From Hoeflea sp. (GTDB lineage: Bacteria > Pseudomonadota > Alphaproteobacteria > Rhizobiales > Rhizobiaceae), in the NCBI RefSeq assembly GCF_039975035.1, contig NZ_JBDWHW010000021.1:392-64391 (forward strand): DNA of 64,000 nt, given 5' to 3'. Shown here in pieces: positions 2,306-51,899 of this stretch. A model generated the notes under the pieces. It ran no database searches. It had not been told where the DNA came from and saw only the letters and a list, made by a program, of their open reading frames with translations. The stretch's first letter is position 1, and each line of letters opens with the position of its first letter. The translations under genes and the position numbers were made by a program.

Positions 2306-2421
2306 AATTCTCCATCCGTCGCCGGTCAAAATTGGTTTGCAAGCTTTGCCAGATTGGACCTTATCGTAAGTCCAATCGAGCCGCTACGGTCTCACCAAAT
2401 GTCAGCACGGAATCGAACATC

Positions 2422-3537: not shown

Positions 3538-3626
3538 CCCACAGTCGGCAACCGGCAGCCTTTCGGATTTCAACAAGAATGCGGCGGCCAATTGTCCAGC
3601 CGTGTTTCTGCGGCTAGAAAGACCGG

Positions 3627-4619: not shown

Positions 4620-4710
4620 TCACCTCAACCGGTCGGCCTGAAACGAGCCGGGATGGAAAATCCGGATTATCCGGCTTGCCTTCAATCCCAATAGTGCTAA
4701 AAATTTAGCC

Positions 4711-8612: not shown

Positions 8613-11077
<2,465 letters not shown>

Positions 11078-13700: not shown

Positions 13701-13730
13701 CCGGTCTATTCTTGGCCGGTCTATTCCTGG
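13701..13730. repeat. 15-nt tandem duplication CCGGTCTATTC(T/C)TGG x2 spanning the tctA stop codon
   Basis: Read directly: ccggtctattcttgg (13701..13715) and ccggtctattcctgg (13716..13730). The second copy contains the tctA stop (cta at 13721..13723 on the plus strand). Confidence 0.9.
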
Positions 13731-15235: not shown

Positions 15236-15723
15236 GGAAGCCTCACGAAATCACCCTGCGGTATCGCGACACCGGCGACATGGGCAAAGAAAGCATAGAG
15301 CACCAGCGGAACCAGTACCGCACTGATCAGTGCGGTTTTCGGATGACTGGTGCCGACAAGAAAGGCGGTTACGATAAACACCAGCATCGAGGTCCAGACC
15401 ATACCGATGCGGGGCATCAGCAGCATGGTGGCGATCATCACTGCGGCAATGCTTGCCAGTCGGCGCCAGGCATTCGTCCTGTCGTCCACATCGGAGATTA
15501 CAGGCTCGGAGGATACGGGCTCGCGGAGCGCCAGCACCACCATACCCAGACCCGTGATTCCAGTCAGGCCGGCAAGCGCCCATGGCCAGAAAAGCGGCGA
15601 CAGGATGATATTTGGAACATTGCTGGGAGACGATACCCAGACAGGAATGGCGACAAGCAAAAGAAAAGCAGCTGCTAATATTGCCCCTACGCCCAATTGA
15701 AGTTGAATTGTCCGATCGTGCAC
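15232..15723 (-). CDS. tctB: tripartite tricarboxylate transporter small membrane subunit
   Basis: 163 aa with about 4 TM. Position between tctC and tctA with ATGA overlap. Confidence 0.8.
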   Translation of the reverse strand: MHDRTIQLQLGVGAILAAAFLLLVAIPVWVSSPSNVPNIILSPLFWPWALAGLTGITGLGMVVLALREPVSSEPVISDVDDRTNAWRRLASIAAVMIATMLLMPRIGMVWTSMLVFIVTAFLVGTSHPKTALISAVLVPLVLYAFFAHVAGVAIPQGDFVRLP

Positions 15724-15920: not shown

Positions 15921-16898
15921 CTAGCCTTCGACACGCATGCCAAGTTCATCAACCAATTTGCGGAAGGTCTCGTACTGCCCTTGAATAAAGGCCTTGGCTT
16001 CCTCCGGGTTCATCAGATTGATGACCGAGCCCGCCTTTTCCATGACGGCAAGAAACTTCTCATCCTGGACTGCCGTAGCCATCCACTCGCCCCATTTTGC
16101 CGCAACATCATCGCCCAGCGAAGCCGGGCCGGCAATGCCGGTCCATCCGACAAGTTGTTCAAGGGACGGCTTGCCGAGTTCTGTGGCGGTCGGGGCATCA
16201 AAACCGTTGAGCCGCTCGGGGGTAGTTACCAGCAGCGGCTTGAGCTGCCCGTTGGCCACAAAACCCGCCAGCGCCGAGGAGTTGGTGCAGATGAAGGTCA
16301 CGGTGCCGTTGAGCACCGCAGTTGCGGCCTCGCCACCACCCTTCTGCGGGATATGGACCGTCGACTTGAGCGGATCTTCGATGCCGAACTCCTTCAGCAC
16401 CATCACCGCTGCCAATTGCAACAGTGATCCAACGCCGGAGGAGGAATAGGAGACACCGCCTTCCTGGACCTTGGCTATCAGGTCGTCCATCGAGGCAATG
16501 CCGGAGGCTGGCGTTACCGCACATACGACCGGGTTGATTTCATAGACGGTGACAAAACGGAAATCATCAAGCGTGTAGGGCAGTGTTGCCTTCATCGCCG
16601 GATTGACGGTGTGCGAGCCGACGCGGGCAAACAGCATGGTGTAGCCATCGCCCTTGGCATTCTGCACAGCCACGGAACCAGTGGCGCCGCCCGCGCCTGT
16701 GACGTTGGACATTACCATCGGCGTGCCGGCGGCGGCAGTCAGAGCCTCGGCGATTGCGCGTGCGGAAATGTCCGTGGCGCCGCCCGCACCATAAGGAATA
16801 ATCATATTGATCGGGCGATCCGGGTATTCGGCCAAAGCCGCCGTCGCCGTCATTCCGAGCGTGAGCGCACACGCCAAGCCGATTTTCTTGAAATTCAT
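15921..16898 (-). CDS. tctC: Bug/TctC-family tripartite tricarboxylate transporter substrate-binding protein
   Basis: ORF 15921..16994. ATG at 16898 (MNFKKIGLACALTLGMTATAALA signal peptide) preceded by GGGAGGAAA. EYPDRPINMIIPYGAGGATD. Confidence 0.9.
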   Translation of the reverse strand: MNFKKIGLACALTLGMTATAALAEYPDRPINMIIPYGAGGATDISARAIAEALTAAAGTPMVMSNVTGAGGATGSVAVQNAKGDGYTMLFARVGSHTVNPAMKATLPYTLDDFRFVTVYEINPVVCAVTPASGIASMDDLIAKVQEGGVSYSSSGVGSLLQLAAVMVLKEFGIEDPLKSTVHIPQKGGGEAATAVLNGTVTFICTNSSALAGFVANGQLKPLLVTTPERLNGFDAPTATELGKPSLEQLVGWTGIAGPASLGDDVAAKWGEWMATAVQDEKFLAVMEKAGSVINLMNPEEAKAFIQGQYETFRKLVDELGMRVEG

Positions 16899-17061: not shown

Positions 17062-17979
17062 ATGTCGATACGATTGCTCAAAACGCTTCTGGCGGTGGCG
17101 GAACACGGGACTTTCAGTGCGGCGGCCGACGCGGTTTTTATCACTCATGCCGCTGTCAGCCAGCAGATGAAAGCCTTGGAACAGGAATGGAAAATCGCCA
17201 TTTTCGAACGGTCCAAGCGAACTCCGGAACTTACACCCATCGGCCGCAGTCTGGTGGAAAAGGCACGCGAGGTGGTGCGGGCCTATGACAATCTGGTGCC
17301 ATCGGTCCTTGGGGATGACGGACTCAAAGGCGATCTGATGCTCGGCGCGGTGCCCACGACCCTGGCAGGTCTCGCGCCGATGGCAATCTCGCTGCTCAAA
17401 TCCGCCTACCCCGATCTGCACGTCGCCGTCCAGCCCGGACTGACCAATGAATTGCTGCACCAGGTCGAGCGCGGCTATCTCGATGTCGCAGTCATCTCCA
17501 AACCGAAACTCGTTCCGCGCGGCCTCAACTGGCACCAGATAGCCATCGAGCCGCTGCAACTGCTGGCCTCTCTGGAGACCGATAGCGACGACCCGGTACA
17601 CCTGCTCAACACCAACCCCTTTATACGCTTTACCCGCGAAGCGGTGGTTGGCGATCTGATTGAAATTTGGCTGCAAGAGCAGAAGATCGATGTGCGTGAC
17701 AGCATGGAGCTGGAGGGGCTTGAGGCGATTTCCACCATGGTGCTGTGCAATCTCGGTGTCTCCATAGCGCCGCGCCGCTGCTTCCAGAGTGCCAATCCGC
17801 TGAACCTGAAGCGCCTGCCACTTCACAACGGCCCGGTACGCCATCTCGGTCTCATCAGTCGCGCAGACACCACCAAGGTGCGGGTGATCGAGGAAATTCA
17901 CTCCAAGCTGCTGGAAGCCGTCGAAATCGGCTCGTTCCCGCCCAGGACATTGAGGACACCTCCCCCAAGTGACAATTGA
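17062..17979 (+). CDS. LysR-family transcriptional regulator
   Basis: ATG at 17062 gives MSIRLLKTLLAVAEHGTFSAAADAVFITHAAVSQQMKALE. Divergent from tctC. The 3' end overlaps the TauE gene start by 11 nt. Confidence 0.9.
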   Translation: MSIRLLKTLLAVAEHGTFSAAADAVFITHAAVSQQMKALEQEWKIAIFERSKRTPELTPIGRSLVEKAREVVRAYDNLVPSVLGDDGLKGDLMLGAVPTTLAGLAPMAISLLKSAYPDLHVAVQPGLTNELLHQVERGYLDVAVISKPKLVPRGLNWHQIAIEPLQLLASLETDSDDPVHLLNTNPFIRFTREAVVGDLIEIWLQEQKIDVRDSMELEGLEAISTMVLCNLGVSIAPRRCFQSANPLNLKRLPLHNGPVRHLGLISRADTTKVRVIEEIHSKLLEAVEIGSFPPRTLRTPPPSDN

Positions 17980-18715
17980 GTTCATCGCAATCCTGGCCGC
18001 CGGCGCCGCCCTGGGTGGTTTTGTCAACGGTCTGGCGGGTTTCGGCACCGCCTTGTTCGCGCTCGGTTTCTGGCTGCAGATCCTGCCACCGCTGGAAGCC
18101 GTGTCACTGATCGCCTTGATGTCCGTCATCAGCGGTTTGCAGGGCGTGTGGGTTGTAAGACGCTCGGTGCTCGACAATCCGCGCCGTCTCGCACGGTTTT
18201 TAATACCTGCGGTCTTTGGCATACCGGCAGGCATTGCCGCGTTGTCGATCTTTCCGCCGCTGGTTATCAAACTGGTGATCGCCGCATTCATGATTCTCTA
18301 TGGCGGTTTCTTCTCGCTCCGCAGCGCGCTGCCCCGGTTCGAGCGGCCGACACCGGTGATTGACAGCATGATCGGCTTTTTCGGCGGCGTGCTGGGTGGC
18401 GCCGCCTCGCTATCTGGCGCCCTGCCGACGATGTGGTGCTCCATGCGGCCATGGCCGAAAGCCGAAATCCGCGCTGTACTGCAACCCTTCAACGTCATTG
18501 TGCTGGGGCTCACTGCAGTCGGTTTCGCGGTCAAGGGCGTCTATGATCTTGATACCCTGAAACTGATCGCCGTGACCCTGCCGGTGACGCTGATATCGGC
18601 GCAGATCGGCATCATCACCTTCAAACGGCTCAATGACGATCAATTCCGCCGGCTGATCATCGCCTTGATGTTCATTTCCGGCGCAGTCCTGCTTGCAAGG
18701 GAGGTTCTCTGGTGA
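17969..18715 (+). CDS. TauE/SafE (DUF81) family membrane protein, putative sulfite/organosulfonate exporter
   Basis: 248 aa with about 7-8 TM. Gly-rich TM1 AAGAALGGFVNGLAGFGTALF and second half-repeat GFFGGVLGGAASLSG, typical of the family. GTG start. Confidence 0.8.
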   Translation: MTIEFIAILAAGAALGGFVNGLAGFGTALFALGFWLQILPPLEAVSLIALMSVISGLQGVWVVRRSVLDNPRRLARFLIPAVFGIPAGIAALSIFPPLVIKLVIAAFMILYGGFFSLRSALPRFERPTPVIDSMIGFFGGVLGGAASLSGALPTMWCSMRPWPKAEIRAVLQPFNVIVLGLTAVGFAVKGVYDLDTLKLIAVTLPVTLISAQIGIITFKRLNDDQFRRLIIALMFISGAVLLAREVLW

Positions 18716-19851
18716 CCATTTCAGTCATTGCCCGCATCGAGGTCTCGACCTACCGGGTGCCCATCACCACACCGGTGATGACCTCCTTCGGCGCCATGGC
18801 CAACCGCCCGGCCGTGTTCGTCCGGCTCATCGATTCCGATGGTGCATTCGGCTGGGGTGAAATCTTCGCCAACTGGCCTGCGGCCGGTGCAGAACACCGC
18901 GCCAGGCTGTTGATGGAAGACATTGCCGACCTTGTGATCGGATTTCAGGCCGAAACCGCGAGCGACCTGTTCCATCATCTGATGACGAAAACCCATATCC
19001 GCGCACTGCAATGCGGCGAATGGGGACCCTTCGCGCAGGTCATCGCCGGGCTCGACACCGCCCTGCACGATCTTTTCGCACGCCGCGACGGCGTCTCGTT
19101 GGCCCGCCATCTCAATCGCGAGGCGGCCACATCCGTGCCTGCCTATGCCAGTGGCATCCACATCGGAGCGGCCAGCACGATGGTCCCCATGGTTCGCAAA
19201 CTGGGCTACCAGGCTATGAAGGTGAAGATCGGTTTCGACGCTGGCGCGGATATCAAACTGTTAAGAGACCTCTGCGCTACCCGGCCCCAAGGGGAAAGGC
19301 TGTTCACGGACGCCAACCAGGCCTGGACGCTTGAAGAGGCGCTTGCTTTTGTCGACCGGGCCGGCGAACTCGGGTTGGACTGGCTGGAAGAACCGATCCG
19401 TGCCGACATGCCGGGTGAGCAATGGACGGAACTGGCCAAGGCGAGTTGCATACCGCTGGCCGCCGGCGAGAACATCACCGGTTTTGACAGTTTCGATACA
19501 GCCATCGCCTCGGGCAATTTCGGCTTCATCCAGCCGGACGTGGCCAAGTGGGGCGGCGTGACCGGATGCTACCGGATCGGCAAGGCCATTCTGGCGGGCA
19601 GCCGGACCTATTGTCCGCATTTCCTCGGCGGCGGGATCGGGTTGATCGCTTCGGGCCATCTGTTGGCGGCAGCCGGCGGCAACGGCCTGCTGGAAGTCGA
19701 CGTCAACGCCAATCCGCTGCGCGATGCCTTTTTCCCCGAAGGCATGTGCAAAGGCGGGCGCTTCGAACTTTCCGACGCGCCGGGAATGGGATTCGAAGCA
19801 CTACCGGAAAGCCTGCTGCAGTATCGGACATTGGACCTGGTCCGCAGTTAG
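18712..19851 (+). CDS. enolase-superfamily enzyme (mandelate racemase subgroup-like), substrate unknown
   Basis: 379 aa. GTGA overlap with the TauE stop. AMKVKIGFD (KxK), LFTDANQAW, WLEEPI, AAGENI, IQPDVAKWGG, YCPHFLGGG. Confidence 0.85.
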   Translation: MTISVIARIEVSTYRVPITTPVMTSFGAMANRPAVFVRLIDSDGAFGWGEIFANWPAAGAEHRARLLMEDIADLVIGFQAETASDLFHHLMTKTHIRALQCGEWGPFAQVIAGLDTALHDLFARRDGVSLARHLNREAATSVPAYASGIHIGAASTMVPMVRKLGYQAMKVKIGFDAGADIKLLRDLCATRPQGERLFTDANQAWTLEEALAFVDRAGELGLDWLEEPIRADMPGEQWTELAKASCIPLAAGENITGFDSFDTAIASGNFGFIQPDVAKWGGVTGCYRIGKAILAGSRTYCPHFLGGGIGLIASGHLLAAAGGNGLLEVDVNANPLRDAFFPEGMCKGGRFELSDAPGMGFEALPESLLQYRTLDLVRS

Positions 19852-19860
19852 GCCCGGTTC

Positions 19861-20181
19861 TCACTTCACCTGAAAAAACGGTGCGGGTACCAGGATCTTG
19901 TTTTCGACATGGGTGACCAACGGCCGCATCTTGGCGGCGTAGCTCTGCCATTCGGGCGCGGCCTGCAACAGCTTGCGACGCACGAAGCGGTCATCAAGAC
20001 TGTCATAGCCCCACATGTGGACAATCTGGTTGAGCGGACCGATATCGGTGAAGTAGTACCCGACCATCTTGCCGAGGATTCGCACCTGCACCTCCATTCC
20101 CTCCTCCTCATAAAGCTTGAGGAAAACCGGCACCTTTCCGGCCTGCAGCGTATAGATGCGTTCATCAACAAACTTGCTCAT
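19861..20181 (-). CDS. NIPSNAP-family protein
   Basis: 106 aa single-domain protein. IYTLQAGKVPVFLKLYEEEG...IVHMWGYDSLDDR pattern recognised as NIPSNAP-like. Confidence 0.7.
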   Translation of the reverse strand: MSKFVDERIYTLQAGKVPVFLKLYEEEGMEVQVRILGKMVGYYFTDIGPLNQIVHMWGYDSLDDRFVRRKLLQAAPEWQSYAAKMRPLVTHVENKILVPAPFFQVK

Positions 20182-20202
20182 GTGAAATCCCTTCCGAAAG
20201 CC

Positions 20203-21228
20203 TCAGTTCATGTAAATCTTGATCGCGGTCAGTGCGAAGACGGCGAGAATCCCGGTGAGCGCGCAAATCAGCACGATGGCACTGCCACCGACATCGCCGA
20301 GTTTTTTCAGCGAAGTCTTCATGCCAAGCGCTGCAATCGCCACGACCAGGCACCAGCGCGAGAACGACAGCAAGCCGTCCTTGACTGGCACCGGAATGAA
20401 GTCATAGGAGCCGACGATAACCAGCGCGGCAAAACCAATGACAAAGAACGGGATCGGCAGTGCCCGCTTGGCGCCGGGTTCGCGCGAGCCTGCAAACACC
20501 AGCGACAGCACCACGACAATCGGCACCAGCAGCGCAACACGCAGCAGCTTGACGAAGGTAGCGGTTTCGCCGGCGAGGTCTGACACCGAGTAGCCGGCAC
20601 CGACAACCTGCGCAACATCATGGATGGTGGCGCCGAAGAAAACGCCGGTGGCAACTTCCGACAATTGCATCACGTCGGCGATGATCGGATAGAGGATCAT
20701 GGCAAGCGTGCTGAGCGCCGTGACCCCTATGACGGTGAAGATGGTGTCGCGTTCCAGTGTCTCGCTCTTGGGCAGTACCGAGGAGATCGCCAGCGCCGCC
20801 GACGCACCGCAGATCGCCACCGCACCCCCGATCAGCAAACCGAAACGCGAGCCGCGGCCGAGGAACCGGCTCAGGACCAGACCCAGACTGATGGTCAGCG
20901 CCACGCCGCCCAGCGTGATCAACAGCACTTCAGACCCGGTCGAGGCGATCTGCTGAACGGTGATTCCGAGACCCAGCAACGCCACACCGAAACGCAACAG
21001 CACTTTCGAGGAGAACTCGATGCCGGCCACGCATGTGCCGCCATCCTCAACCAGAAAATTGAAGGCCATACCGATCAGCAGTGCGATCAGCATCACCGGC
21101 GCGCCATAATGCTCGGAAATGAACTTGGCCGCCAGCGCTACAGTCAGCGCCGTGAGCAGCCCAGGAAACAGCAGTTGGGCCTTTCGGACCAGCGCAAGTT
21201 CGGTCAATCGGGTCATGGACCTCTTCAC
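20203..21228 (-). CDS. YeiH/UPF0324-family membrane protein (family annotated as putative sulfate exporter)
   Basis: 341 aa polytopic. GGAVAICGASAALA, GATIHDVAQVVGAG, AIAALGMKTSL. Confidence 0.8.
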   Translation of the reverse strand: MKRSMTRLTELALVRKAQLLFPGLLTALTVALAAKFISEHYGAPVMLIALLIGMAFNFLVEDGGTCVAGIEFSSKVLLRFGVALLGLGITVQQIASTGSEVLLITLGGVALTISLGLVLSRFLGRGSRFGLLIGGAVAICGASAALAISSVLPKSETLERDTIFTVIGVTALSTLAMILYPIIADVMQLSEVATGVFFGATIHDVAQVVGAGYSVSDLAGETATFVKLLRVALLVPIVVVLSLVFAGSREPGAKRALPIPFFVIGFAALVIVGSYDFIPVPVKDGLLSFSRWCLVVAIAALGMKTSLKKLGDVGGSAIVLICALTGILAVFALTAIKIYMN

Positions 21229-21298
21229 ATTTTCGATAGGGGACGGTGGGAACGCCCCGCATCAGAGGTGCGCGGCGTTGCAGTCAGAACGTACGTGC

Positions 21299-22402
21299 CT
21301 ACTGTCCGACAAAGACGACCACTTTCTGGGCCGCGTTGTTGCCGAATCCGCCGGCATCCCATGGCGCTTGGAGTGGCTGCACCTGACCTTCAGCATCGGT
21401 TGCGCGACAGCGCAGCACGTGCTCGCCGGGGCTGGCAGTCCAGTCGCAAGTCCATTTGGTCCAGGCATAATCGCCAACAGCAGTATCCAGCCGGGCTTCC
21501 TGCCAGGCGCCATCAAGCTCCACCTCAACTCGGCTGATCGGCACACCAGCGCCCGACCATGCACGGCCGATGAGCGTTACCGGTCCGGGCTCCAGATAGC
21601 GCTTGCGCGACCCCCAGTCAGGAACGCCCGGCGGCACCATCAACGATTTCACCCGTATGGCGGATACCGGCCGACCCGGATCTTCCGCAGTTTCTCGGTA
21701 GCGATAGGTACGCAGTTGCTGAAAACCGTCATAAGGCTCCGTCAGCGCCTCAATCCGCTTAAGCCATTTGACACTTGCCATCCCGTACCAACCGGGAACA
21801 ATCAGCCGGAGCGGCGCTCCATGCTGTGGCAACAACGGCTGCCCATTCATGGCATAGACGAGCATGACATCGAGTTCTGCGATTTGCGCCAGCGTCAGCG
21901 AGCGGCCAAATGGATGGCCGACGCCCTTGTCAAAACCGTAGTCGGCGCCGGTGAAGGCGATCTCAACGGCATCAGAGCGCAGCCCCATCTGTTCGATCAA
22001 CGGTCTTAGCGGTGTGCCGGTCCATTCCGATGTGCCGACCGCCTCATAGATCCACGGCATGGCATGAAGGCGCGGTGATACGCCAGCGCGCCCATTGCCC
22101 GCGCATTCCATTGTCACAGGCAGAGTCACCTGTGGCATTGCCTTGATCTCGTCGAGCGACAGTTCGGCAGCAGTATCGAACGCGCCCGAAAAACTCAGTT
22201 TGTGATTGCCGGCATCGAGTAGCGGCACATCGAAATGATTGAGCAAATAATGCAGCCCGGTGGGTGTCACATCCAGCGCCAGGGTCTCCAGCAGAATACC
22301 AGAATTGCGGTTGGCGAGCCTCAACTCGTCCTCGCTGTAGATCCCGTCCTGAGTGTCTATCGGCCCGTTATGTCCTGCGAAGGGATTATCATTCGTTGTC
22401 AT
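21299..22402 (-). CDS. sulfite-oxidase-family molybdopterin oxidoreductase (Mo domain plus dimerisation domain), no signal peptide
   Basis: 367 aa. Mo-ligand cysteine motif TMECAGNGR. The N-terminus MTTNDNPFAGHNGPID lacks Sec or Tat features. Start lies 3 nt after the upstream stop. Confidence 0.85.
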   Translation of the reverse strand: MTTNDNPFAGHNGPIDTQDGIYSEDELRLANRNSGILLETLALDVTPTGLHYLLNHFDVPLLDAGNHKLSFSGAFDTAAELSLDEIKAMPQVTLPVTMECAGNGRAGVSPRLHAMPWIYEAVGTSEWTGTPLRPLIEQMGLRSDAVEIAFTGADYGFDKGVGHPFGRSLTLAQIAELDVMLVYAMNGQPLLPQHGAPLRLIVPGWYGMASVKWLKRIEALTEPYDGFQQLRTYRYRETAEDPGRPVSAIRVKSLMVPPGVPDWGSRKRYLEPGPVTLIGRAWSGAGVPISRVEVELDGAWQEARLDTAVGDYAWTKWTCDWTASPGEHVLRCRATDAEGQVQPLQAPWDAGGFGNNAAQKVVVFVGQ

Positions 22403-22405
22403 GCC

Positions 22406-23086
22406 CTACCCTATCACTTCATCGCTGCGGTCGTCGGTTTCGCCAAAACGCTTGAGTACTGCCGGCACGGTGCCTTCATAGACTTTCGCGAGATTGGCGG
22501 AAATTTTGGCATTCTCGCGTTCGAACAGTGAATTGCCGGCCAGATCGCTCTCGACGATGAACGGCCCCATATTGTCGGCCTCAAGCACCCACATGGCCTG
22601 GGCGAGGCCGAGTTCCTTGTTCCAGTGCACAGTCTTGACCCGCTTGACGCCACGGCCCAGCAATGCGCCGGTTCCATAACCCACCGTGGTCAGGTAGATG
22701 GCGCCATTGGGGACGAAATGCTCCCTGTAGTCCTTCGAACTCATGCCGCCCTTGCCGATGATCAGCTTGGCGCCGGATTTCGCCATCCACTCGCCGATCC
22801 ATTTGGTGAAGCGGAATGACGCCGTGGCGGTCACAGCACCCAGCCGGAATGTGCCGTCCTCATTGATGGCGGCGGCGGGCGAGCAATGGAAATTGGCTGC
22901 ACTTTCACCCGGCAACTCCATCGGAATGTTGGCCTTGTCCTCGAGCGCACGCTTGTAGACGCCTTCGCGCGCCGTATAGATCAGTCCGTCGAGATAGACG
23001 ACGTCGCCCAGCCGCAGCTCGGCCAATGCTTCGGGCGTCGGCGTGGTGCTCAGGCGGATTTTTCGTGGTTTTGAGGCATTTCCCAT
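22406..23086 (-). CDS. class-I Fe-S hydro-lyase beta subunit (FumA C-terminal / TtdB-like)
   Basis: 226 aa. LIIGKGGMSS, AIYLTTVGYGTGALL, AMWVLEADNMGPFIV. Confidence 0.85.
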   Translation of the reverse strand: MGNASKPRKIRLSTTPTPEALAELRLGDVVYLDGLIYTAREGVYKRALEDKANIPMELPGESAANFHCSPAAAINEDGTFRLGAVTATASFRFTKWIGEWMAKSGAKLIIGKGGMSSKDYREHFVPNGAIYLTTVGYGTGALLGRGVKRVKTVHWNKELGLAQAMWVLEADNMGPFIVESDLAGNSLFERENAKISANLAKVYEGTVPAVLKRFGETDDRSDEVIG

Positions 23087-24012
23087 TCCACTGTCTCCCG
23101 GCGTTGATAATCAGTGAACCAGTCCGGATCGGTGCGGTATTCCACACGTCCGTCGGCGAAAACCCGCGCCACGGCGCGGCGCGATGAAAGGCAAAATGCA
23201 TGGACTGACATCTGCATGCCGCCAGTGTGGCAGTAGCCAACCTCGATATTGGCATCAATGACCATCGACTTGCCGACAAAGCCCATCGCGCCCATGCCGA
23301 TGGAATTGCCCAGTTCCTTGAGTTCCAGCTCCAGTTCGGCGATACGCGGATCGGAATTGCGGGAGCCGACAACGCGCAGGCAGGCGGCGCGCTTGCCCAG
23401 CACCATGCAGGTATCTTTGCAGCCGCCCAGCCCGATGCCGATGATCGCCGGCTGACAGGCCAGCCCGCGCTTGCCGAAGGCGACCAGGCAATCGAGATAG
23501 AAGCGCTTGATGCCCTGGATGCCGTCTGATGGAAACAGCATGCGGTAGTCAGTGCCGAACAGCCCGCCCTTGTGCACGGTGATCAGGTCGATCCATTCGC
23601 CGCCCGGCTCATAGCCGTATTCGATTTCCGGTGCGCCGATGCCGACATTGTTGTCATGATCTGTCCGCCACAGCGGATGCACCCGGTTCGGCCGCAGTGG
23701 CACTCCATTGGTTGCGTTTGCGGTTGCCCTGCGCAAGGCAGCCTCGAGCGCGATCGGGCCGCCCTCGATTTGGGTTTCGTTGCCCATCTTGACGTACCAG
23801 CGCGGCGTGCCGGTATCGCCGCACATGGCGCGGCGATCTTCCTTGGCCGCCGTATAGTTTTCGAGCATCGCCTCAAGCACGAAGGATGACAGATCTCCGT
23901 CCTCCACATTGGCTGCTGCCTGGAGCCCGTCGAGATAATCCTGCGGGATTTCGATTGCCGCCTTGTCCATCAGGACCTCGGCCGTCTTTTGAATGATGTC
24001 GATAGGGATCAT
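23050..24012 (-). CDS. class-I Fe-S hydro-lyase alpha subunit (FumA N-terminal / TtdA-like)
   Basis: 320 aa. AMCGDTGTP (CxDTG-type cluster Cys) and further Cys in GLGGCKD and HAFCLSSRR. Overlaps the beta-subunit start by 37 nt. Confidence 0.85.
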   Translation of the reverse strand: MIPIDIIQKTAEVLMDKAAIEIPQDYLDGLQAAANVEDGDLSSFVLEAMLENYTAAKEDRRAMCGDTGTPRWYVKMGNETQIEGGPIALEAALRRATANATNGVPLRPNRVHPLWRTDHDNNVGIGAPEIEYGYEPGGEWIDLITVHKGGLFGTDYRMLFPSDGIQGIKRFYLDCLVAFGKRGLACQPAIIGIGLGGCKDTCMVLGKRAACLRVVGSRNSDPRIAELELELKELGNSIGMGAMGFVGKSMVIDANIEVGYCHTGGMQMSVHAFCLSSRRAVARVFADGRVEYRTDPDWFTDYQRRETVEWEMPQNHEKSA

Positions 24013-25778
24013 CAGCTCACCTCCACCAGGGTTTCGGGGTCACCGGCCGGCAGGATCGTCTCACCCGGCCGGACGATGGTAAACTGCACCGGCTCGCGGC
24101 TGACAGCGATGCCGTCACCGGTCTGCCGCGCCACGGTGAAATAGGAGCTTTCGAGATCGCCCTGCTCGGGAAAGTCCTCCCGGAAGTGGGCGCCGCGCGA
24201 ATTCTCCCGCTCCAGCCCTGCCTTGGCAATGACATCGGAAACTTCACACAGCGAGCGGACATTGAGCCAGTCGTGCCACGTCAGATTGAAAGCCAGATTG
24301 CCTGCATCAACGCCCGCATGCATCAACTCATCGGAGATCGCGGCGACACGGTCGGTGCCGCGCTGCATGCCGCGGCGGTTGCGGATGACGCCGACGTCCT
24401 CCCACATCGCTTCCTGCAATTCATGCCTGAGTTCCTGAATGTTCGACGGCTTGCGGCCAAGCGGTTGGCAGGCGCGCGCAACCTCGGCCTCGAGCACCGT
24501 CTCGTCAGGATCTCGCAACGCACCCATACGACGGATATCCATGCCCATGGCGTCGCCGGCCACGCCTCCATAGACGGTCGAATTGGCGACCCCGTTGCCA
24601 CCCAGCCGGTTGGAGCCGTGCGCGCCGCCTGCATCCTCGCCCGCGACATAGAGACCTTCCATCTCGGTGCGGGTGTCAATGTCCACCACCACACCGCCCA
24701 TGAAATAATGCGCCGTCGGCACCACCTCGACCTTGCCTGCAGCAAGATCAAAGCCGGAATCGGCACAGCGCTTGACCATTCCCGAGAATTTCTTGCGCAC
24801 CATGTCAGGGCCGAGATGGGCCATCGAGATGTAAACTCCCCCATTGGTCGAGGTGTTGGACTTGCGCATCTCGGCATAGATGCCGCGCGAGACAACGTCG
24901 CGGGTGGCGCGCTCGCCACGGTCATCATAATCGAACATGAAACGCCGCTCGGAGCCGTTGAGCAACTCGCCTCCCGCCCCTCGCAATCCCTCTTCCAGCA
25001 CCGTACCGGTCATCTTGGTGTGGTCACCAGCCAGAAGTCCGGTGGGATGGAACTGCACCATTTCCATGTCGCGCAGTGGCAACCCGGCGCGCAGCACCAT
25101 CGCCAGCCCGTCCATGGTCTTGTCGCCGGATGGCGTGTGATACTTGTACATGGTCGGCCCGCCGCCGGTGGCCATCAGCACGGTCTTGGCGCGAACGAAG
25201 CGGAACTTTCCTGTTCGCATGTCGATCATCAACACGCCGGCCAGCGCCGAGCCGTCTTTCGTCGGAATCAGGCCGATTGCGCGGTGTTCCTGAAGCTTCT
25301 CCACCGGGCGTGAGAGCACCTGCTCCATCAGCCGGTTGATGATCTCGATTCCGGTCAGATCGCCCTTGTGCACGGTGCGGTCCGCAGTCTGGCCGGCAAA
25401 GGCCTTGTGATGCAACGTCCCGTCGGCATTGCGGTCGAAGAAACAGCCGATTTCGTTTTCGAGTTCGCGCACCCGCACCACTGCCTGCTCGCAGAGTTTC
25501 CAGGCCATGTCCTGGTTGGGCAGCCATTTGCCGCCATTGATGGTGTCCATGAAATGACGTTCGACCGTATCGCCCGATCCGAGTGCGACATTGTAGCCGC
25601 CCTGCACCATGCGGGTGCAGCCGCATTTGCCGATCAGGCCCTTGACCGCGACAGTCACCTTGGTGCCTGCCGGCGCGGTCTGCATGGCGTGGAGTGCGGC
25701 AAACATACCGGCGCCTCCTGTGCCGAGAATAAGGATGTCAGTGTCGTGGCGATCGATTGTCATCTTGGTCATGCTCAT
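24012..25778 (-). CDS. succinate dehydrogenase/fumarate reductase-type flavoprotein subunit
   Basis: 588 aa. ILILGTGGAG, MVQFHPTGL, EEGLRGAGGELLN, TAHYFMGGV, NRLGGNGVANS. The canonical RSHT histidine is replaced (GCT). Confidence 0.9.
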   Translation of the reverse strand: MSMTKMTIDRHDTDILILGTGGAGMFAALHAMQTAPAGTKVTVAVKGLIGKCGCTRMVQGGYNVALGSGDTVERHFMDTINGGKWLPNQDMAWKLCEQAVVRVRELENEIGCFFDRNADGTLHHKAFAGQTADRTVHKGDLTGIEIINRLMEQVLSRPVEKLQEHRAIGLIPTKDGSALAGVLMIDMRTGKFRFVRAKTVLMATGGGPTMYKYHTPSGDKTMDGLAMVLRAGLPLRDMEMVQFHPTGLLAGDHTKMTGTVLEEGLRGAGGELLNGSERRFMFDYDDRGERATRDVVSRGIYAEMRKSNTSTNGGVYISMAHLGPDMVRKKFSGMVKRCADSGFDLAAGKVEVVPTAHYFMGGVVVDIDTRTEMEGLYVAGEDAGGAHGSNRLGGNGVANSTVYGGVAGDAMGMDIRRMGALRDPDETVLEAEVARACQPLGRKPSNIQELRHELQEAMWEDVGVIRNRRGMQRGTDRVAAISDELMHAGVDAGNLAFNLTWHDWLNVRSLCEVSDVIAKAGLERENSRGAHFREDFPEQGDLESSYFTVARQTGDGIAVSREPVQFTIVRPGETILPAGDPETLVEVS

Positions 25779-26116
25779 ACCGCCTGCAGTAAGAAAGTTC
25801 CGGCCACAAGGAACGCAGCAGCGACCGCGGAGGCGGCCATTGTCTTGTGCCGCGGCGACCAGGGGAGGAATTCCAGCGCCAGCAGCCTCAGCCCACCGAA
25901 GACGTGAACCGCCAGCAGAAAGACGAGGCCGAATTCGGCCAGTTTCACAAGGGGATTGTCTGCAAAACGCAAGTACCTGTCGAGTTCGTCAGGCTGGTCG
26001 AGCGCCAGCGCTAGCATGTAGAAATGCGCAGGCAGGAACAGCGCCAGCCCCAGACCCGAAAGCCGGTGCAGCAGATAGGCGATCCACAATGGATGCGAGC
26101 GGTGCGGACGGATCAT
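25775..26116 (-). CDS. SDH/FRD membrane anchor subunit (SdhC-like)
   Basis: ATG at 26116 (MIRPHRSHPLW) gives an ATGA overlap with the upstream ORF. LLHRLSGLGLALFLPAH motif. 3 TM. Confidence 0.75.
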   Translation of the reverse strand: MIRPHRSHPLWIAYLLHRLSGLGLALFLPAHFYMLALALDQPDELDRYLRFADNPLVKLAEFGLVFLLAVHVFGGLRLLALEFLPWSPRHKTMAASAVAAAFLVAGTFLLQAV

Positions 26117-26445
26117 GACAGCGTCACCGCGAAAAGCGCGCGCAAGCCCATTGCCAGCAACAGCAGGCCTGCAAGCCACATGAAAATCTCCAGCCCCTTG
26201 CCTTTCAGGCCCAGGGTCTCGTGCACGATAACGCGCAAACCGATGGATGCATGCATCGACACCGCCACAATGAACAGGCCGTAGAAAGCAAACCAGACGA
26301 CGCTACCCTTGGTTCGTCCCAGAATTTCGGCTGTGGTGAGTCCGCCCTGTATGGCATAGATCATCACCGCGATGTGGCCGAGCGTCAGCGGGATCATCAC
26401 CATCGCGCTCAGCCGTTGCACCATGTAAAGCCGCAGACCCAGCAT
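26113..26445 (-). CDS. SDH/FRD second small membrane anchor subunit
   Basis: 110 aa with 3 predicted TM helices. Abuts the Fe-S subunit stop with no gap. Confidence 0.65.
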   Translation of the reverse strand: MLGLRLYMVQRLSAMVMIPLTLGHIAVMIYAIQGGLTTAEILGRTKGSVVWFAFYGLFIVAVSMHASIGLRVIVHETLGLKGKGLEIFMWLAGLLLLAMGLRALFAVTLS

Positions 26446-27174
26446 CTAGCGCCCTCCTTTGAAGAAGGAGGCGGTCGTGGCCCTTTTGAGACCGGCAATC
26501 GCCTTCATCGGATTGAGTCCGTTGGGGCAATGCAAGGTGCAACTCCCCTGGCTGTGACAGTTGTGACAGCCGCCCTTGCCGGAAACCGCATTGAGGATGG
26601 CATTTGGATCGGCGTCCTTGGGATCGAGATAGAGGGTCCAGGCCCTCTGCAGCGCTGCCGGTCCGAGAAAATCGACGTTGTTCGCCACCGTGTCGCACGC
26701 CGCGTAGCAGACCGAGCAATTGATGCATTCGATGCCGGTATCGGCCTCCACCCGCGCAGGCGTCGACGGGTCCAGTGTCTCGATGGCATCGTCACGGCTC
26801 TTCGTCGGATGGTGCTTTCCACCTGCCGCGATCCATTTGTCGAAGAATGGATCCATGTCCGCGGCCAGATCCTTGATCACCGGCAGATTGCGCAGGGGTG
26901 CGATGGTGATGGCGTTGTCCTTGAGCACTTTCTTGACATGGGTACGGCAGGTCCAGCGCGGCACCCCGTTGACCATCATGGCGCAGGAACCGCACATGCC
27001 GACACGGCAAGCATAGCGGTAGGACAGGGTTGGATCGGCATGCTGCTGGATCCAGGCAACAACATCGAGAATGGTCTGGCTTTCCTGGGCCGGAACCGTG
27101 AAATGCTGGAGTTCGCCGCCCGCCGCGTCACCGCGCCAGACCGATACGTCCATATCTTGCATGCTTTCCGACAA
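26446..27174 (-). CDS. succinate dehydrogenase/fumarate reductase iron-sulfur subunit
   Basis: 242 aa. CRVGMCGSC (2Fe-2S), CINCSVCYAAC, CHNCHSQGSCTLHCP. TTG start 5 nt after GAGG (alternative ATG at 27162). Confidence 0.9.
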   Translation of the reverse strand: MSESMQDMDVSVWRGDAAGGELQHFTVPAQESQTILDVVAWIQQHADPTLSYRYACRVGMCGSCAMMVNGVPRWTCRTHVKKVLKDNAITIAPLRNLPVIKDLAADMDPFFDKWIAAGGKHHPTKSRDDAIETLDPSTPARVEADTGIECINCSVCYAACDTVANNVDFLGPAALQRAWTLYLDPKDADPNAILNAVSGKGGCHNCHSQGSCTLHCPNGLNPMKAIAGLKRATTASFFKGGR

Positions 27175-27253
27175 AACCGCCTCGATGACTCTGAATGGGT
27201 GTCTGCCTTTATAGTTGTGAGGTTTCCTAACACAAAGGAATAAATGCTAACGA

Positions 27254-27277
27254 ATTATGTAATCTTTGCTTACGTAA
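27254..27277. promoter_or_regulatory. second copy of the 20-nt box (ATTATGTAATCTTTGCTTAC) plus TTACGTAA palindrome, upstream of the SDH-like operon
   Basis: Read directly. 18/20 identical to 17023..17042 and in the same orientation. GTAA-N7-TTAC dyad. Lies 80-99 nt upstream of the start at 27174. Confidence 0.6.
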
Positions 27278-27352
27278 AAGTTGCTTTGCAATACCCGGGT
27301 TTTGGCTAATGTGGAGGCCAGGTTACGAACCAGTTGAGGAACAGGCCCACCC

Positions 27353-27967
27353 ATGATCACACTTTGCTATGCCAATGGCACCGCCGCGCTGGCGCCGCAT
27401 ATCCTGCTCGAAGACGCGGGCGCCGAGTATGAAACCAGGTTGGTCGACTTCTCCGCAACCGAGCAGCAATCGCCTGATTTCCTGGCTATCAATCCCAAGG
27501 GCCGGGTTCCTGCGCTGATCACGCCAAAGGGCACGCTCACCGAAACACCGGCGATCCTGGCCTTCATCACGCAAATCTATCCGCACGCCAATCTGGCGCC
27601 ATCCGACGCGTTCGACTTTGCCGAAGCCCAGGCCTTCAACCTCTATCTCGCCGCCACTGTGCATGTGAACCATGCCCACAAGCAACGCGGTAGCCGGTGG
27701 ACCAAGGACGAAGCCGCGCAGGAGAAAATGCGCGAGACCGTGCCCGCCAACATGACCGAATGCGCCCGCATCATTGAGCAGCATTACCTCAAGGGGCCCT
27801 GGGTGATGGGCGACACCTATTCGATGTGTGATCCCTATCTGTTCGTCATCAGTCGCTGGATGAAGGCCGATGGCGTCAATCTCGATGATTTTCCTGCCAT
27901 CACGGCTCATTTTGCCGCCATGCAGGAACGCCCCAGTGTGCAGAAAATCATGCGGATACACACATAA
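27353..27967 (+). CDS. glutathione S-transferase
   Basis: 204 aa. N-terminal thioredoxin-like GST pattern (FLAINPKGRVPALI) and helical C-domain. Confidence 0.85.
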   Translation: MITLCYANGTAALAPHILLEDAGAEYETRLVDFSATEQQSPDFLAINPKGRVPALITPKGTLTETPAILAFITQIYPHANLAPSDAFDFAEAQAFNLYLAATVHVNHAHKQRGSRWTKDEAAQEKMRETVPANMTECARIIEQHYLKGPWVMGDTYSMCDPYLFVISRWMKADGVNLDDFPAITAHFAAMQERPSVQKIMRIHT

Positions 27968-51302: not shown

Positions 51303-51899
51303 GTGAAAGACGCCCTGCATGTCCTCGATAAGCGTAACCTTCCTGTCCGCAAGACCATTCGCCGCGCCCGCTGGTTCACAGCCTCTTTTCGCGATTTTCT
51401 CGGCTCGGTTTCGGATGAAACGCAACGACACTATGTCCTCGATGAAGGAAAGCTCATATCCGCATTCACGTCATGGTTCCGTGCCTTCGAAGCGCAAAAG
51501 TACAAGGCCAGGGAACATCGACTGGAATATGTGACCTTCTCGGCTGGTTTGATGTTGCGGGAACTGGTGCGTCACGCGCCTGTAACGGCTGAACCATATG
51601 TCGGCCCGGTCGATCAGAGTGCGCCCGAGGGGTTCTGGCCGGAAGGCTACTTGTACGTCACATTTTGCCTGGCCGTCAGAGAGGCTGTCATTGAGCAGGA
51701 CTTTTCACTGGTCAACGATGTGACGCCGGAGCTTGGCGACCTCCGGACCTGGTGGTCCTTCAGGGAGAATACACGCGACGATATTGATCTGGCCGTCAGT
51801 TTTTTTGAGCGGTTCGCCGGTGAAATGCCCAACTGGTCCACGCCGGGACTGTTTCTACCCCACAACTCCAGGGAAAAGACCCAAAAATCGCTCAGTTGA
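51303..51899 (+). CDS. hypothetical protein, no recognisable family
   Basis: GTG start 1 nt after the upstream stop. 198 aa, Trp/Phe-rich and soluble. Confidence 0.5.
   Translation: MKDALHVLDKRNLPVRKTIRRARWFTASFRDFLGSVSDETQRHYVLDEGKLISAFTSWFRAFEAQKYKAREHRLEYVTFSAGLMLRELVRHAPVTAEPYVGPVDQSAPEGFWPEGYLYVTFCLAVREAVIEQDFSLVNDVTPELGDLRTWWSFRENTRDDIDLAVSFFERFAGEMPNWSTPGLFLPHNSREKTQKSLS

Follow-up and report, generated by a model that had tools for sequence, protein, structure and literature searches.

A conserved complex II-like and fumarase-like gene cluster in Hoeflea sp. with a possible role in 3-sulfopropanoate catabolism

The sequence studied is a 64,000 nt window of a Hoeflea sp. genome (NZ_JBDWHW010000021.1 positions 392 to 64,391, assembly GCF_039975035.1). 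It contains a packed minus-strand operon coding for SdhBCDA-like proteins, a split class-I Fe-S hydro-lyase and a SUOX-family molybdoenzyme, with a LysR-TauE-enolase-type operon converging on it. All genes, motifs and junctions described in the initial annotation were found again as open reading frames at the same coordinates, with Pfam families that agree with the identities given there. The conserved cluster is wider than the block first described, and extends from a TPP enzyme (11998) to a glutathione S-transferase (GST; 27967):

11998..13611, minus strand: TPP-dependent enzyme, 537 aa, conserved cluster partner
13721..15235, minus strand: TctA, large permease of a tripartite tricarboxylate-type (TTT) importer (Pfam TctA, E = 7e-144)
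15232..15723, minus strand: TctB, small membrane subunit (Pfam TctB)
15921..16898, minus strand: TctC, periplasmic binding protein, 325 aa when counted from the conserved start (Pfam TctC; the gene is also called in the identical TARA locus)
17062..17979, plus strand: LysR-type regulator, heading the LysR-TauE-enolase-type operon and transcribed divergently from tctC (Pfam HTH_1 and LysR_substrate)
17969..18715, plus strand: TauE/SafE-family anion exporter, putative sulfite or sulfonate exporter (Pfam TauE, 1.4e-29)
18712..19851, plus strand: enolase-superfamily (MR/MLE) enzyme, translationally coupled to TauE (Pfam MR_MLE_N/C)
19861..20181, minus strand: NIPSNAP-family small protein, conserved accessory (Pfam NIPSNAP)
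20203..21216, minus strand: YeiH/PF03601 membrane protein, putative sulfate exporter (Pfam Cons_hypoth698, 5e-64; TIGR00698 under cut-off)
21299..22402, minus strand: SUOX-family molybdoenzyme, 367 aa, putative cytoplasmic sulfite dehydrogenase (Pfam Oxidored_molyb and Mo-co_dimer)
22406..23086, minus strand: hydro-lyase beta subunit, remodelled two-subunit class-I Fe-S type (Pfam Fumerase_C)
23050..24012, minus strand: hydro-lyase alpha subunit ("type 1"), putative sulfoacrylate hydratase (Pfam Fumerase)
24012..25772, minus strand: SdhA/FrdA-like flavoprotein, putative 3-sulfopropanoate dehydrogenase (Pfam FAD_binding_2 and Succ_DH_flav_C)
25775..26116, minus strand: SdhD-like membrane anchor, 113 aa, HRLSGL motif (Pfam Sdh_cyt)
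26113..26445, minus strand: SdhC-like membrane anchor, 110 aa (Pfam Sdh_cyt)
26446..27174, minus strand: SdhB/FrdB-like Fe-S subunit (Pfam Fer2_3 and Fer4)
27175..27352, no strand: divergent intergenic region between sdhB-like and GST genes, AT-richer, presumed promoter and regulatory region
27353..27967, plus strand: GST, conserved cluster partner (Pfam GST_N/GST_C)

On the minus strand, SdhB and SdhC abut (0 nt), SdhC and SdhD overlap by 4 nt, SdhD and SdhA are 2 nt apart, SdhA and FumA overlap by 1 nt, and 3 nt separate FumB from SUOX; the SUOX/YeiH and YeiH/NIPSNAP gaps are 70–82 nt and 21 nt. LysR overlaps TauE, and TauE the enolase-type gene, on the plus strand. The motifs HRLSGL, QFHPTG, HYFMGG, NRLGGNG, MCGDTG, IGKGGMS and TMECAGNGR are all present, including those quoted earlier as FHPTG and RLGGNG. 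A consensus promoter scan of 27175..27352 scored no higher than in shuffled sequences. Since a matching locus lies on a 345-kb TARA scaffold assigned to Hoeflea sp., the cluster is not an assembly artefact, and its recurrence in many genomes places the gene arrangement far beyond chance.

The SDH-like/fumarase-like pair is supported as a distinct, conserved and unannotated paralogue set. Every NCBIfam match of the pair falls under the equivalog cut-off, and the top model for the flavoprotein scores 468 bits where its cut-off is 718. The SdhB-like protein has all three cluster motifs (CRVGMCGSC...C, CINCSVCYAAC and CHSQGSCTLHCP). Compared with FrdA, the SdhA-like flavoprotein retains H232, R287, H355 and R390 but carries Cys52 in place of His44, the covalent-FAD histidine position, and Glu260 in place of Thr244 at the dicarboxylate site; its signature residues are invariant in 13/13 orthologues examined and in a haloarchaeal homologue. 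The hydro-lyase alpha subunit retains three Cys, the Asp and the His, with changes of CQDTG to MC[G/A]DTG, RPNVVHP to RPNRVHP and GSEN to LFG[T/S]D and a C-terminal extension; the substitution of CQDTG by C[G/A]DTG is a fixed signature of this hydratase. In the beta subunit GKGG is intact, as are the catalytic Thr and Arg, while T-T-S-A-R has become T-A-S-F-R.

The SdhBCDA-like genes and split fumarase-like unit travel together in ~29 loci of the sample, which spans Alpha-, Beta- and Gammaproteobacteria, Actinobacteria and haloarchaea, with carriers in Rhodobacterales, Hyphomicrobiales, Burkholderiales, Pseudomonas and Rhodococcus. The predicted tie between such a pair and sulfite and organosulfonate genes is seen across many lineages, with sulfite-handling genes of several independent kinds close by. 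In the haloarchaeal loci, an argininosuccinate-lyase/fumarase-superfamily gene stands in for the Fe-S hydratase, a non-orthologous swap that preserves the "fumarase" step. TctA accompanies the cluster in 12/29 loci and TauE in ~18/29 SdhA-like loci (annotated copies counted), and the LysR-TauE pair adjoins it in many genomes; YeiH (7/29), NIPSNAP and the enolase-type gene are accessories whose presence varies between genomes. In Paracoccus, Pseudorhizobium, Pseudomonas, Yoonia and Ascidiaceihabitans the gene after the hydratase genes is a NIPSNAP gene, and GST orthologues occur in the clusters of Marivita, Aestuariicoccus, Sulfitobacter and Hyphomicrobiaceae. The TPP enzyme, with orthologues of 45–84% identity adjoining the cluster or a SUOX gene in nine loci, is not Xsc. 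Its nearest families are 2-hydroxyacyl-CoA lyase, benzaldehyde lyase and oxalyl-CoA decarboxylase; it has relatives in the PDB, and its NCBIfam matches are all under cut-off. The earlier view of the pair as surrounded by three independent sulfite genes is true of Hoeflea but not universal. A cytoplasmic SUOX gene is present in 14/29 loci, 11 of which, like the window itself, were found via the SUOX gene; it is missing from 14/14 loci found via SdhA, where periplasmic SorAB/SoxC-type enzymes sometimes take its place. SorA/SoxC-type enzymes with cytochrome c lie near the unit in Pseudomonas MPC6 and M. nodulans.

Gene neighbours in other genomes, sulfolactate enzymes among them, bear on the substrate. 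The M. radiotolerans cluster is adjoined by SuyAB-like genes, Ldh_2 (ComC family) and a second dehydrogenase; SuyAB-like genes also flank the cluster in both haloarchaea (with Ldh_2 in Haloarcula), a betaproteobacterial MAG has adjacent SuyB-like and Ldh_2 genes, and P. versutus has Ldh_2 and a hydroxyacid dehydrogenase. SuyB is nearby in 0/23 loci with a type-1 hydratase vs 4/5 with a canonical-type or ArgH-like hydratase. Genes that could produce 3-sulfopropanoate out of C3 precursors also adjoin the unit: Pseudorhizobium NT-26 has TRAP transporter, beta-hydroxyacid-DH-like and succinate-semialdehyde-DH-like (SSADH-like) neighbours, Yoonia and Ascidiaceihabitans have DAO, ALDH and Zn-ADH, Sulfitobacter has an aminotransferase, and a Zn-ADH lies inside the Hyphomicrobiaceae clusters. 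A CoA-acylating malonate/methylmalonate-semialdehyde dehydrogenase (MmsA-type) is encoded immediately after the hydratase genes in Pseudomonas MPC6 and next to them in Cupriavidus P-10. The SSADH-like, ALDH, DAO, ADH and MmsA-type enzymes would make or use C3 compounds, and together with the beta-hydroxyacid-DH and SuyAB/ComC/SlcC-like neighbours they argue for a C3 sulfonate rather than sulfosuccinate. Homotaurine, 3-hydroxypropanesulfonate and 3-sulfopropanal are the precursors to which they point.

On balance, we slightly favour the block as an island of genes for the catabolism of a sulfonate that resembles succinate; the most likely one is 3-sulfopropanoate (3-SP), and TctCBA would import it. 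Gene content, conserved synteny, signature substitutions and neighbour statistics are direct observations, from which, with gene context, we infer the substrate, the reactions, which way the electrons flow, and transport. The TctCBA importer noted next to the block is borne out by Pfam and would take up 3-SP; SlcHFG, a TTT system, is a known sulfolactate importer. The complex II paralogue would oxidize 3-SP to 3-sulfoacrylate, passing electrons to quinone, and the remodelled hydro-lyase would hydrate sulfoacrylate. Water added onto the sulfonated carbon would give a 1-hydroxysulfonate that collapses to malonate semialdehyde and sulfite; alternatively, 3-sulfolactate would form and be cut by a beta-eliminating lyase, possibly the TauE-coupled enolase-superfamily enzyme in the window and SuyAB in other genomes. 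The enolase-type enzyme matches talarate/galactarate dehydratase weakly, under cut-off (closest structure 3DDM), and occupies the same place beside TauE as SuyAB-like genes in Methylobacterium and haloarchaea; it is a candidate sulfo-lyase acting on 3-sulfolactate. The molybdoenzyme would oxidize cytoplasmic sulfite to sulfate, perhaps passing the electrons on to the same SdhBCD module, TauE and YeiH would export sulfite or sulfate, although these family names are weak guides to function, and the LysR protein would regulate the cluster.

The neighbour pattern fits conversion of 3-SP via sulfoacrylate to sulfolactate, or to malonate semialdehyde and sulfite, better than it fits sulfosuccinate. 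The interpretation in the initial annotation is partly supported: a succinate-like sulfonate remains the probable substrate, sulfosuccinate is not supported, and the chemistry suggested there (dehydrogenation, hydration, then gem-hydroxysulfonate collapse or enolase-type beta-elimination) is still viable. 3-SP is a known product without a known degradation route, and a 2024 paper and a 2026 review both regard its degradation as unresolved. A thesis describes 3-SP to sulfoacrylate to sulfolactate in Roseovarius nubinhibens. As the annotation had suggested, no pathway of this gene composition was found in the literature searched. If the 3-SP reading is true, this previously uncharacterised cluster, conserved in many bacteria, is the probable source of enzymes for a sulfur-cycle step without known ones, and its presence in cultured strains, among them Hoeflea marina DSM 16791, Paracoccus versutus, Sulfitobacter sp. 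THAF37, Pseudorhizobium banfieldiae NT-26, M. radiotolerans JCM 2831 and Pseudomonas sp. MPC6, makes it directly testable.

Several features weigh against 3-SP. Because the flavoprotein lacks the covalent-FAD histidine, it may work in the reductive direction unless a cysteinyl-flavin is formed at Cys52; in E. coli FrdA, mutation of His44 abolishes succinate oxidation. The Glu at the Thr244 position would add a negative charge to the substrate site, unexpected with a dianionic sulfonate. The 64-kb window has no gene for making 3-SP or consuming malonate semialdehyde; SuyAB, ComC and Xsc are likewise missing from it, the absence of xsc and suyAB having been noted before. The TPP enzyme, GST and NIPSNAP are left unexplained by the 3-SP scheme.

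The molybdoenzyme had been described as lacking an export signal, and its N-terminus is indeed conserved and non-hydrophobic, with no twin-arginine motif; its homologues are all ~366 aa. Cys100, Arg105, His56 and Tyr233 are retained, but Leu54 occupies the position of SorA Arg55, and equivalents of Arg55/Arg138, the sulfite binders of characterised enzymes, are missing, which counts against the proposed scheme. Members of the family are found in at least 595 species; elsewhere they adjoin TauD-like dioxygenase, SuyB-like, aminotransferase/TPP or SdhBCD genes. In Hyphomicrobium-type genomes, SUOX, SdhB, SdhC and SdhD form an operon of four genes that lacks SdhA and is under purifying selection; the molybdoenzyme may therefore act with the complex II Fe-S/membrane module as a sulfite:quinone oxidoreductase.

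The minus-strand cluster that runs from the sdhB-like gene (27174) to the gene for the SUOX-family Mo enzyme (21299) is a real, conserved and unannotated organosulfonate module, and it is new as a variant of known enzyme kinds. Judged from its sequence and gene neighbours, its substrate is more likely 3-sulfopropanoate (3-SP), the sulfonate isostere of succinate, than the sulfosuccinate proposed in the initial annotation. All ORFs described there are found where it placed them, with the quoted motifs and with overlaps or gaps of at most 3 nt along the cluster, and profile searches return the same Pfam families. All the catalytic proteins fall far short of the NCBIfam equivalog cut-offs for SdhA/FrdA, fumarase/tartrate dehydratase and SorA/SoxC/SorT, which marks them as divergent paralogues and not housekeeping enzymes. 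At 100% identity, the product of the SUOX gene (21299-22402, minus strand) matches a protein named from a Hoeflea MAG, and a 345-kb TARA scaffold also carries the locus in full.

As the initial annotation also recognized, no canonical desulfonation enzyme (Xsc, SuyAB, CuyA or TauD/SsuD) is encoded in the window, and no further desulfonation enzyme turned up in the rest of the 64 kb. Searches of the window by tblastn find no homologues of SuyAB, ComC/Ldh_2, MmsA, SSADH or aminotransferase, and no genes making 3-SP or consuming malonate semialdehyde were found within it. The TPP enzyme was considered as an Xsc and rejected: it gives only partial matches to the model, at 172 bits against a cut-off of 620, and its nearest relatives are 2-hydroxyacyl-CoA lyase and benzaldehyde lyase. 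Adjoining its gene, at 8613-11983, are a KatG catalase-peroxidase above the equivalog cut-off and a divergent OxyR-like LysR regulator; their proximity may be chance, or may matter if peroxide is a product of the Mo enzyme, as it is of plant sulfite oxidase. A promoter and terminator scan gives nothing above shuffled controls. The 82-nt spacer from the SUOX stop codon to the YeiH start codon holds an imperfect GC-rich hairpin without a T-run (cgccgcg...gcggggcg; 21253-21277, minus strand), which may be a processing or attenuation site.

Relatives of the SUOX gene occur in at least 595 species (scan with one genome per species), and 80 loci were fetched, with genes called by a conservation-weighted caller that leaves some spurious small ORFs. 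By tblastn with the window proteins, SdhB-like genes adjoin SUOX in 17 of these 80 loci, and several truncated SUOX contigs also show hydratase genes directly upstream. The genes are found in two orders, SdhB-C-D-A-FumA-FumB-SUOX in Hoeflea, Marivita, Aestuariicoccus and others, and SUOX-SdhB-C-D-A-...-FumA-...-FumB in Hyphomicrobiaceae. Sampling anchored on SdhA, which covered annotated plasmids and chromids together with metagenome contigs, places the SdhBCDA-hydratase unit in Sulfitobacter, Paracoccus, Pseudorhizobium, Methylobacterium, Cupriavidus, Pseudomonas, Rhodococcus and two haloarchaea; with both anchors, the sample comes to 29 loci. The unit is also found on a great many contigs assigned to Yoonia and Ascidiaceihabitans, indicating that it is common in the sea. 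Genes for sulfite handling near the cluster include TauE in about 18 of the 29 loci and YeiH in seven, in addition to the cytoplasmic SUOX; periplasmic SorA/SoxC-type enzymes with cytochrome c occur near the cluster in Pseudomonas MPC6 and M. nodulans. On the co-occurrence that the initial annotation had suggested checking, SdhBCDA-like, hydratase and sulfite genes travel together. SUOX is absent from all SdhA-anchored loci, lies in unrelated contexts in most genomes and is rejected as an obligate partner of the cluster. A gene for a NIPSNAP-family protein, as at 19861-20181 (minus strand) in the window, lies 3' of the hydratase genes in at least six Alpha- and Gammaproteobacteria genomes.

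The haloarchaeal module (loci L099 4512-12509 and L108 7566-14534) comprises SuyAB-like, TauE, ArgH/fumarase-superfamily, SdhA-like and SdhB genes, and the SdhA-like protein has the same signature as the bacterial one; Ldh_2 is also present in Haloarcula. These two loci lack both an Fe-S hydratase, for which the argininosuccinate-lyase/fumarase-superfamily gene stands in, and annotated membrane anchors.

The SdhBCDA-like unit resembles complex II (SdhABCD/FrdABCD) in having four subunits, with an Fe-S subunit that carries 2Fe-2S, 4Fe-4S and 3Fe-4S motifs and two small Sdh_cyt anchors. The window flavoprotein contains the Pfam domains FAD_binding_2 and Succ_DH_flav_C and, by alignment, keeps the catalytic His232, Arg287, His355 and Arg390 of E. 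coli FrdA (QFHPTG, RD, HYFMGG, NRLGGN). Unlike complex II, the window genes are ordered B-C-D-A, the unit invariably has a hydratase and sulfur genes alongside, and in some genomes the B-C-D genes accompany the Mo enzyme without a flavoprotein. All scores also fall below the equivalog cut-offs, the best NCBIfam match of the flavoprotein being the thiol:fumarate reductase subunit TfrA (468 bits against 718; TIGR01812 gives 403 against 567). The flavoprotein further differs at two positions. Cys52 aligns exactly with His44 of FrdA, the covalent-FAD histidine (GKCGCTRMVQGG), giving the flavin-site signature GK[C/S]GCTRMVQGG, and Glu260 (VLEEGLRG; [V/I][L/I]EEG across the family) replaces the substrate-contact Thr244 (FrdA numbering) at the capping-domain hinge. 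Both the Cys and the Glu are fixed in 13 of 13 bacterial orthologues examined and in the Haloarcula homologue. Cys52 could bear an 8-alpha-S-cysteinyl flavin, or the flavin could be non-covalent, and because the flavin histidine is missing the direction of the reaction is uncertain. The added Glu260 is unexpected for an anionic substrate.

The hydratase shares with FumAB, TtdAB and the M. jannaschii enzyme (7XKY) split alpha and beta subunits, the Fumerase and Fumerase_C domains, three cluster cysteines and the catalytic Asp, His, Thr, Arg and Lys. It differs from FumAB/TtdAB in the motifs MC[G/A]DTG for CQDTG and KGGLFG[T/S]D for KGxGSEN, and in a T-T to T-A change in beta. The alpha subunit has lost GSEN and gained an Arg (RPNRVHP) and a C-terminal extension, and keeps its three Cys, Asp and His; beta keeps GKGG and the catalytic Thr and Arg. 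The alpha-subunit domain model TIGR00722 is exceeded (200.7 against 100.65), the beta-subunit domain model is not (114.6 against 145.15), and all equivalog scores lie below cut-off. In both enzymes, catalytic residues that are kept beside pocket motifs that have changed point to substrate pockets that are remodelled around a retained catalytic machinery.

Two routes to sulfite are plausible from here. The hydratase of the window kind (type 1) would add water at the sulfonated carbon of sulfoacrylate and so release sulfite and malonate semialdehyde directly. This fits the distribution of lyases, in that none of the 23 type-1 loci among the 29 sampled has a SuyB-like gene nearby and that compact operons (LysR-SUOX-SdhBCDA-FumAB, and SdhBCDA-FumAB-NIPSNAP with TauE and LysR) contain no other candidate lyase, whereas SuyAB-like genes accompany four of the five loci with a canonical CQDTG hydratase or an ArgH-like enzyme; the loci in these counts are not phylogenetically independent. 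The canonical CQDTG hydratases are about 30% identical to type 1. Alternatively, sulfolactate would form in the window strain and undergo beta-elimination by the enolase-superfamily enzyme, whose gene is translationally coupled to TauE and holds the position of the SuyAB-like genes in other genomes, and whose nearest structure is one without known function.

The Mo enzyme has the Oxidored_molyb and Mo-co_dimer domains and, in common with SorA, SorT, SoxC and plant sulfite oxidase, the Mo-ligand Cys (Cys100 in TMECAGNGR, aligned with that of SorA) and the active-site Arg105, His56 and Tyr233. Like the plant enzyme it is without a haem domain. Unlike SorA, SorT and SoxC, it has no signal sequence, as the initial annotation had observed, and no cytochrome gene adjoins it; it also possesses a conserved 40-residue N-terminal extension. 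The cationic sulfite pocket is altered, with Leu54, invariant in the family alignment, at the position of SorA Arg55 (chicken Arg138), and the best PDB match is a chain with Met at this position. Scores against the SorA, SoxC and SorT models of NCBIfam are 148-181, compared with cut-offs of 420-600. Cytoplasmic sulfite oxidation is nonetheless the best reading of its putative role, based on the sulfonate-type neighbours of its homologues (TauD-like, SuyB-like, aminotransferase/TPP and TauE). Nitrite oxidation, considered within a 3-nitropropanoate scenario, was rejected on thermodynamic grounds.

Close homologues of the Mo enzyme adjoin TauD-family dioxygenases in several marine lineages, or a SuyB-like gene. 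A TauD/TfdA-family dioxygenase gene lies directly 5' of SUOX at six loci from marine Gamma- and Alphaproteobacteria (L010, at 3460-5623, L012, L013, L017, L018 and L087), three of which (L010, L013 and L017) also have a divergent LysR gene; this pairing is a second recurrent sulfite-producing context. Granulosicoccaceae loci (L041 9107-13838, L047 8500-13303 and L051) show a co-directional series of YaaA, SUOX, TPP enzyme and class I/II aminotransferase, and the betaproteobacterial loci L044, L054 and L057 contain aminotransferase, ChaC, SUOX, a ComE-like TPP protein and TRAP genes. Both arrangements may represent cysteate or sulfopyruvate-type routes.

Six Hyphomicrobium-type loci, one of them from the isolate Hyphomicrobium sp. 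CS1BSMeth3, hold only SUOX-SdhB-SdhC-SdhD, with 4-nt overlaps, among housekeeping genes:

L031, 9947-12466: stand-alone SUOX-SdhBCD operon
L034, 9977-12496: stand-alone SUOX-SdhBCD operon
L037, 730-3246: stand-alone SUOX-SdhBCD operon
L104, 6895-9414: stand-alone SUOX-SdhBCD operon
L105, 4356-6875: stand-alone SUOX-SdhBCD operon
L106, 6895-9414: stand-alone SUOX-SdhBCD operon

No SdhA-like or hydratase gene is found in the 8-10 kb surrounding these six operons, although an SdhA-like gene may lie elsewhere in the genomes. Their SdhB retains all its Fe-S cluster motifs, and strong purifying selection acts on all four genes (dN/dS 0.03-0.18 at dS 0.5-1.0, from the five loci other than L105). A further locus has TauE-SUOX-SdhBCDA without a hydratase. 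Together these arrangements suggest that the Mo enzyme can pass electrons to Fe-S and anchor subunits of the complex-II type, and the stand-alone operon may encode a molybdenum-headed, complex-II-like sulfite:quinone oxidoreductase. To our knowledge, no architecture with a SUOX-fold head on a complex-II Fe-S/anchor module has been described. SoeABC, which couples cytoplasmic sulfite oxidation to the quinone pool, would be its functional analogue; SoeABC consists of a DMSO-reductase-family enzyme, a ferredoxin subunit with four clusters and an anchor of the NrfD type, whereas here a SUOX-fold enzyme would be combined with complex-II Fe-S and anchor subunits. We tentatively propose, as a possible though doubtful combination, that the two novel features are linked: the type-1 hydratase would be the C-S-cleaving enzyme, freeing sulfite and malonate semialdehyde from 3-sulfoacrylate by hydration without a classical desulfonating enzyme, and SUOX would dock on SdhB/C/D as a cytoplasm-facing sulfite:quinone oxidoreductase, a 'complex II with a molybdenum head' of which the four-gene operon of the Hyphomicrobium-type genomes would be the stand-alone form.

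The identity of the substrate is best approached through the genes beside the cluster in other genomes. M. radiotolerans has SuyAB-like genes, Ldh_2 (ComC family) and a second dehydrogenase, a betaproteobacterial MAG has a SuyB-like gene and Ldh_2, and P. versutus has Ldh_2 and a hydroxyacid dehydrogenase beside a TTT system. TRAP transporter, beta-hydroxyacid-DH-like and succinate-semialdehyde-DH-like genes are found in NT-26, DAO, ALDH and Zn-ADH genes in Yoonia and Ascidiaceihabitans, an aminotransferase gene in Sulfitobacter, and a Zn-ADH gene inside the clusters of Hyphomicrobiaceae. An MmsA-type CoA-acylating semialdehyde dehydrogenase gene lies directly 3' of the hydratase genes in Pseudomonas MPC6 and flanks them in Cupriavidus P-10. 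All of these fit 3-SP, which would be formed from homotaurine, 3-hydroxypropanesulfonate or 3-sulfopropanal and dehydrogenated to sulfoacrylate, which would then yield sulfolactate or malonate semialdehyde; these C3-type and sulfolactate-type neighbours favour 3-SP over sulfosuccinate. In the model of the initial annotation, sulfosuccinate (C4, trianionic) is converted to sulfofumarate and hydrated at the sulfonated carbon to give oxaloacetate and sulfite. That chemistry is plausible, the same enzyme families and sulfite-handling genes fit it, and a TTT importer suits polyanions. A Pseudomonas was reportedly found in the 1990s to desulfonate sulfosuccinate to oxaloacetate; searches under both spellings returned nothing usable on sulfosuccinate desulfonation in the literature covered. 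However, neither the SSADH-like, ALDH, DAO, ADH, beta-hydroxyacid DH and MmsA-type DH neighbours nor the SuyAB/ComC/SlcC-like ones have a role in a C4 route that ends at oxaloacetate, and the extra Glu of the flavoprotein is even less favourable for a trianion, so that sulfosuccinate is an unlikely substrate. The same sulfonate-type neighbours, SuyAB/ComC-type genes and alcohol, amine and aldehyde dehydrogenases, suit 3-sulfinopropanoate less well than sulfonates. This acid, which would derive from 3-mercaptopropanoate or from thiols formed out of DMSP, is likewise a succinate isostere and would lose its sulfinate spontaneously as sulfite after dehydrogenation and hydration. It would fit the abundance of the cluster in marine roseobacters, the TTT-dependent import of the related dithiodipropionate, and a gene annotated as 3-sulfinopropanoyl-CoA desulfinase on the same plasmid as the cluster in Sulfitobacter sp. 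THAF37, about 9 kb away (L092 24496-25668), but Methylobacterium, Paracoccus and Cupriavidus from soil commonly carry the cluster too, and we consider this substrate quite improbable.

Two further explanations were considered. If the cluster acted on a substituted C4-dicarboxylate (methylsuccinate/mesaconate or tartrate) or on 3-nitropropanoate, TauE and YeiH would transport anions in general and the Mo enzyme would have no connection with the pathway. Acids of this kind are the usual substrates of SDH and class-I hydro-lyases, two genomes have nitroreductase-family genes close to the cluster, and a malonate semialdehyde dehydrogenase is also compatible with 3-nitropropanoate. Independent and repeated ties to two unrelated kinds of sulfite dehydrogenase, to SuyAB-like lyases and to TauE, together with the translational coupling of SUOX into the operon in two different gene orders, make a non-sulfur route very unlikely. 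Much the same weight attaches to reverse running, in which the complex would reduce sulfoacrylate or another enoate with quinol, for respiration or detoxification. The flavoprotein lacks the covalent-FAD histidine, a loss that shifts fumarate reductase towards reduction, and its best NCBIfam match is a thiol:fumarate reductase subunit; the hosts, though, are mostly aerobes, the importers, regulators and sulfite-oxidising or -exporting genes alongside are typical of catabolism, and the invariant Cys at that site suggests that the flavin is covalently attached in another way. A reductase thus seems highly improbable.

The literature searched holds no paper describing this gene set, in keeping with the initial annotation, which knew of no such pathway. 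The module resembles sulfolactate degradation (SlcHFG, SlcC/ComC, SuyAB), with a TTT importer (the TTT system SlcHFG is what is known to import sulfolactate), a TauE exporter and sulfite oxidation, and with SuyAB-, ComC- and SlcC-like genes beside the cluster in some genomes. The known sulfolactate and homotaurine-to-3-SP routes stop at, or start from, sulfolactate or 3-SP. A 2024 paper states that 3-SP degradation was 'not previously reported' save for a thesis that it cites, and a 2026 review finds that its mechanism 'remains unclear'; in the literature covered, no enzymes that link 3-SP to sulfolactate or sulfite are described. The thesis, on Roseovarius nubinhibens and as relayed by the 2024 paper, proposes sulfoacrylate and sulfolactate as 3-SP intermediates. 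R. nubinhibens is absent among the best 120 SdhA-like matches listed. 3-SP arises from homotaurine and from dihydroxypropanesulfonate during sulfoquinovose breakdown; its degradation is an acknowledged gap, for which the cluster supplies a concrete gene set. Since the cluster occurs in marine roseobacters, which are abundant, and in strains from soil and sea that can be cultured, the missing step becomes directly testable. If the proposed function is correct, two central TCA-cycle enzymes have been re-tooled for a sulfonate isostere, perhaps with a new, Fe-S-dependent way of breaking C-S bonds and possibly with a new architecture for delivering sulfite electrons to the respiratory chain.

Two other loci in the window deserve mention. 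The similarity of the 194-aa ORF at 51896-52480 (plus strand) to TctA is confined to the C-terminal third (profile positions 298-423), and the ORF is probably a gene fragment or split gene. At 833-3537, a second enolase-superfamily gene and a gene for an aldo-keto reductase lie divergent to that of a MocR-type regulator (GntR domain fused to an aminotransferase fold), in what looks like a separate small catabolic unit.
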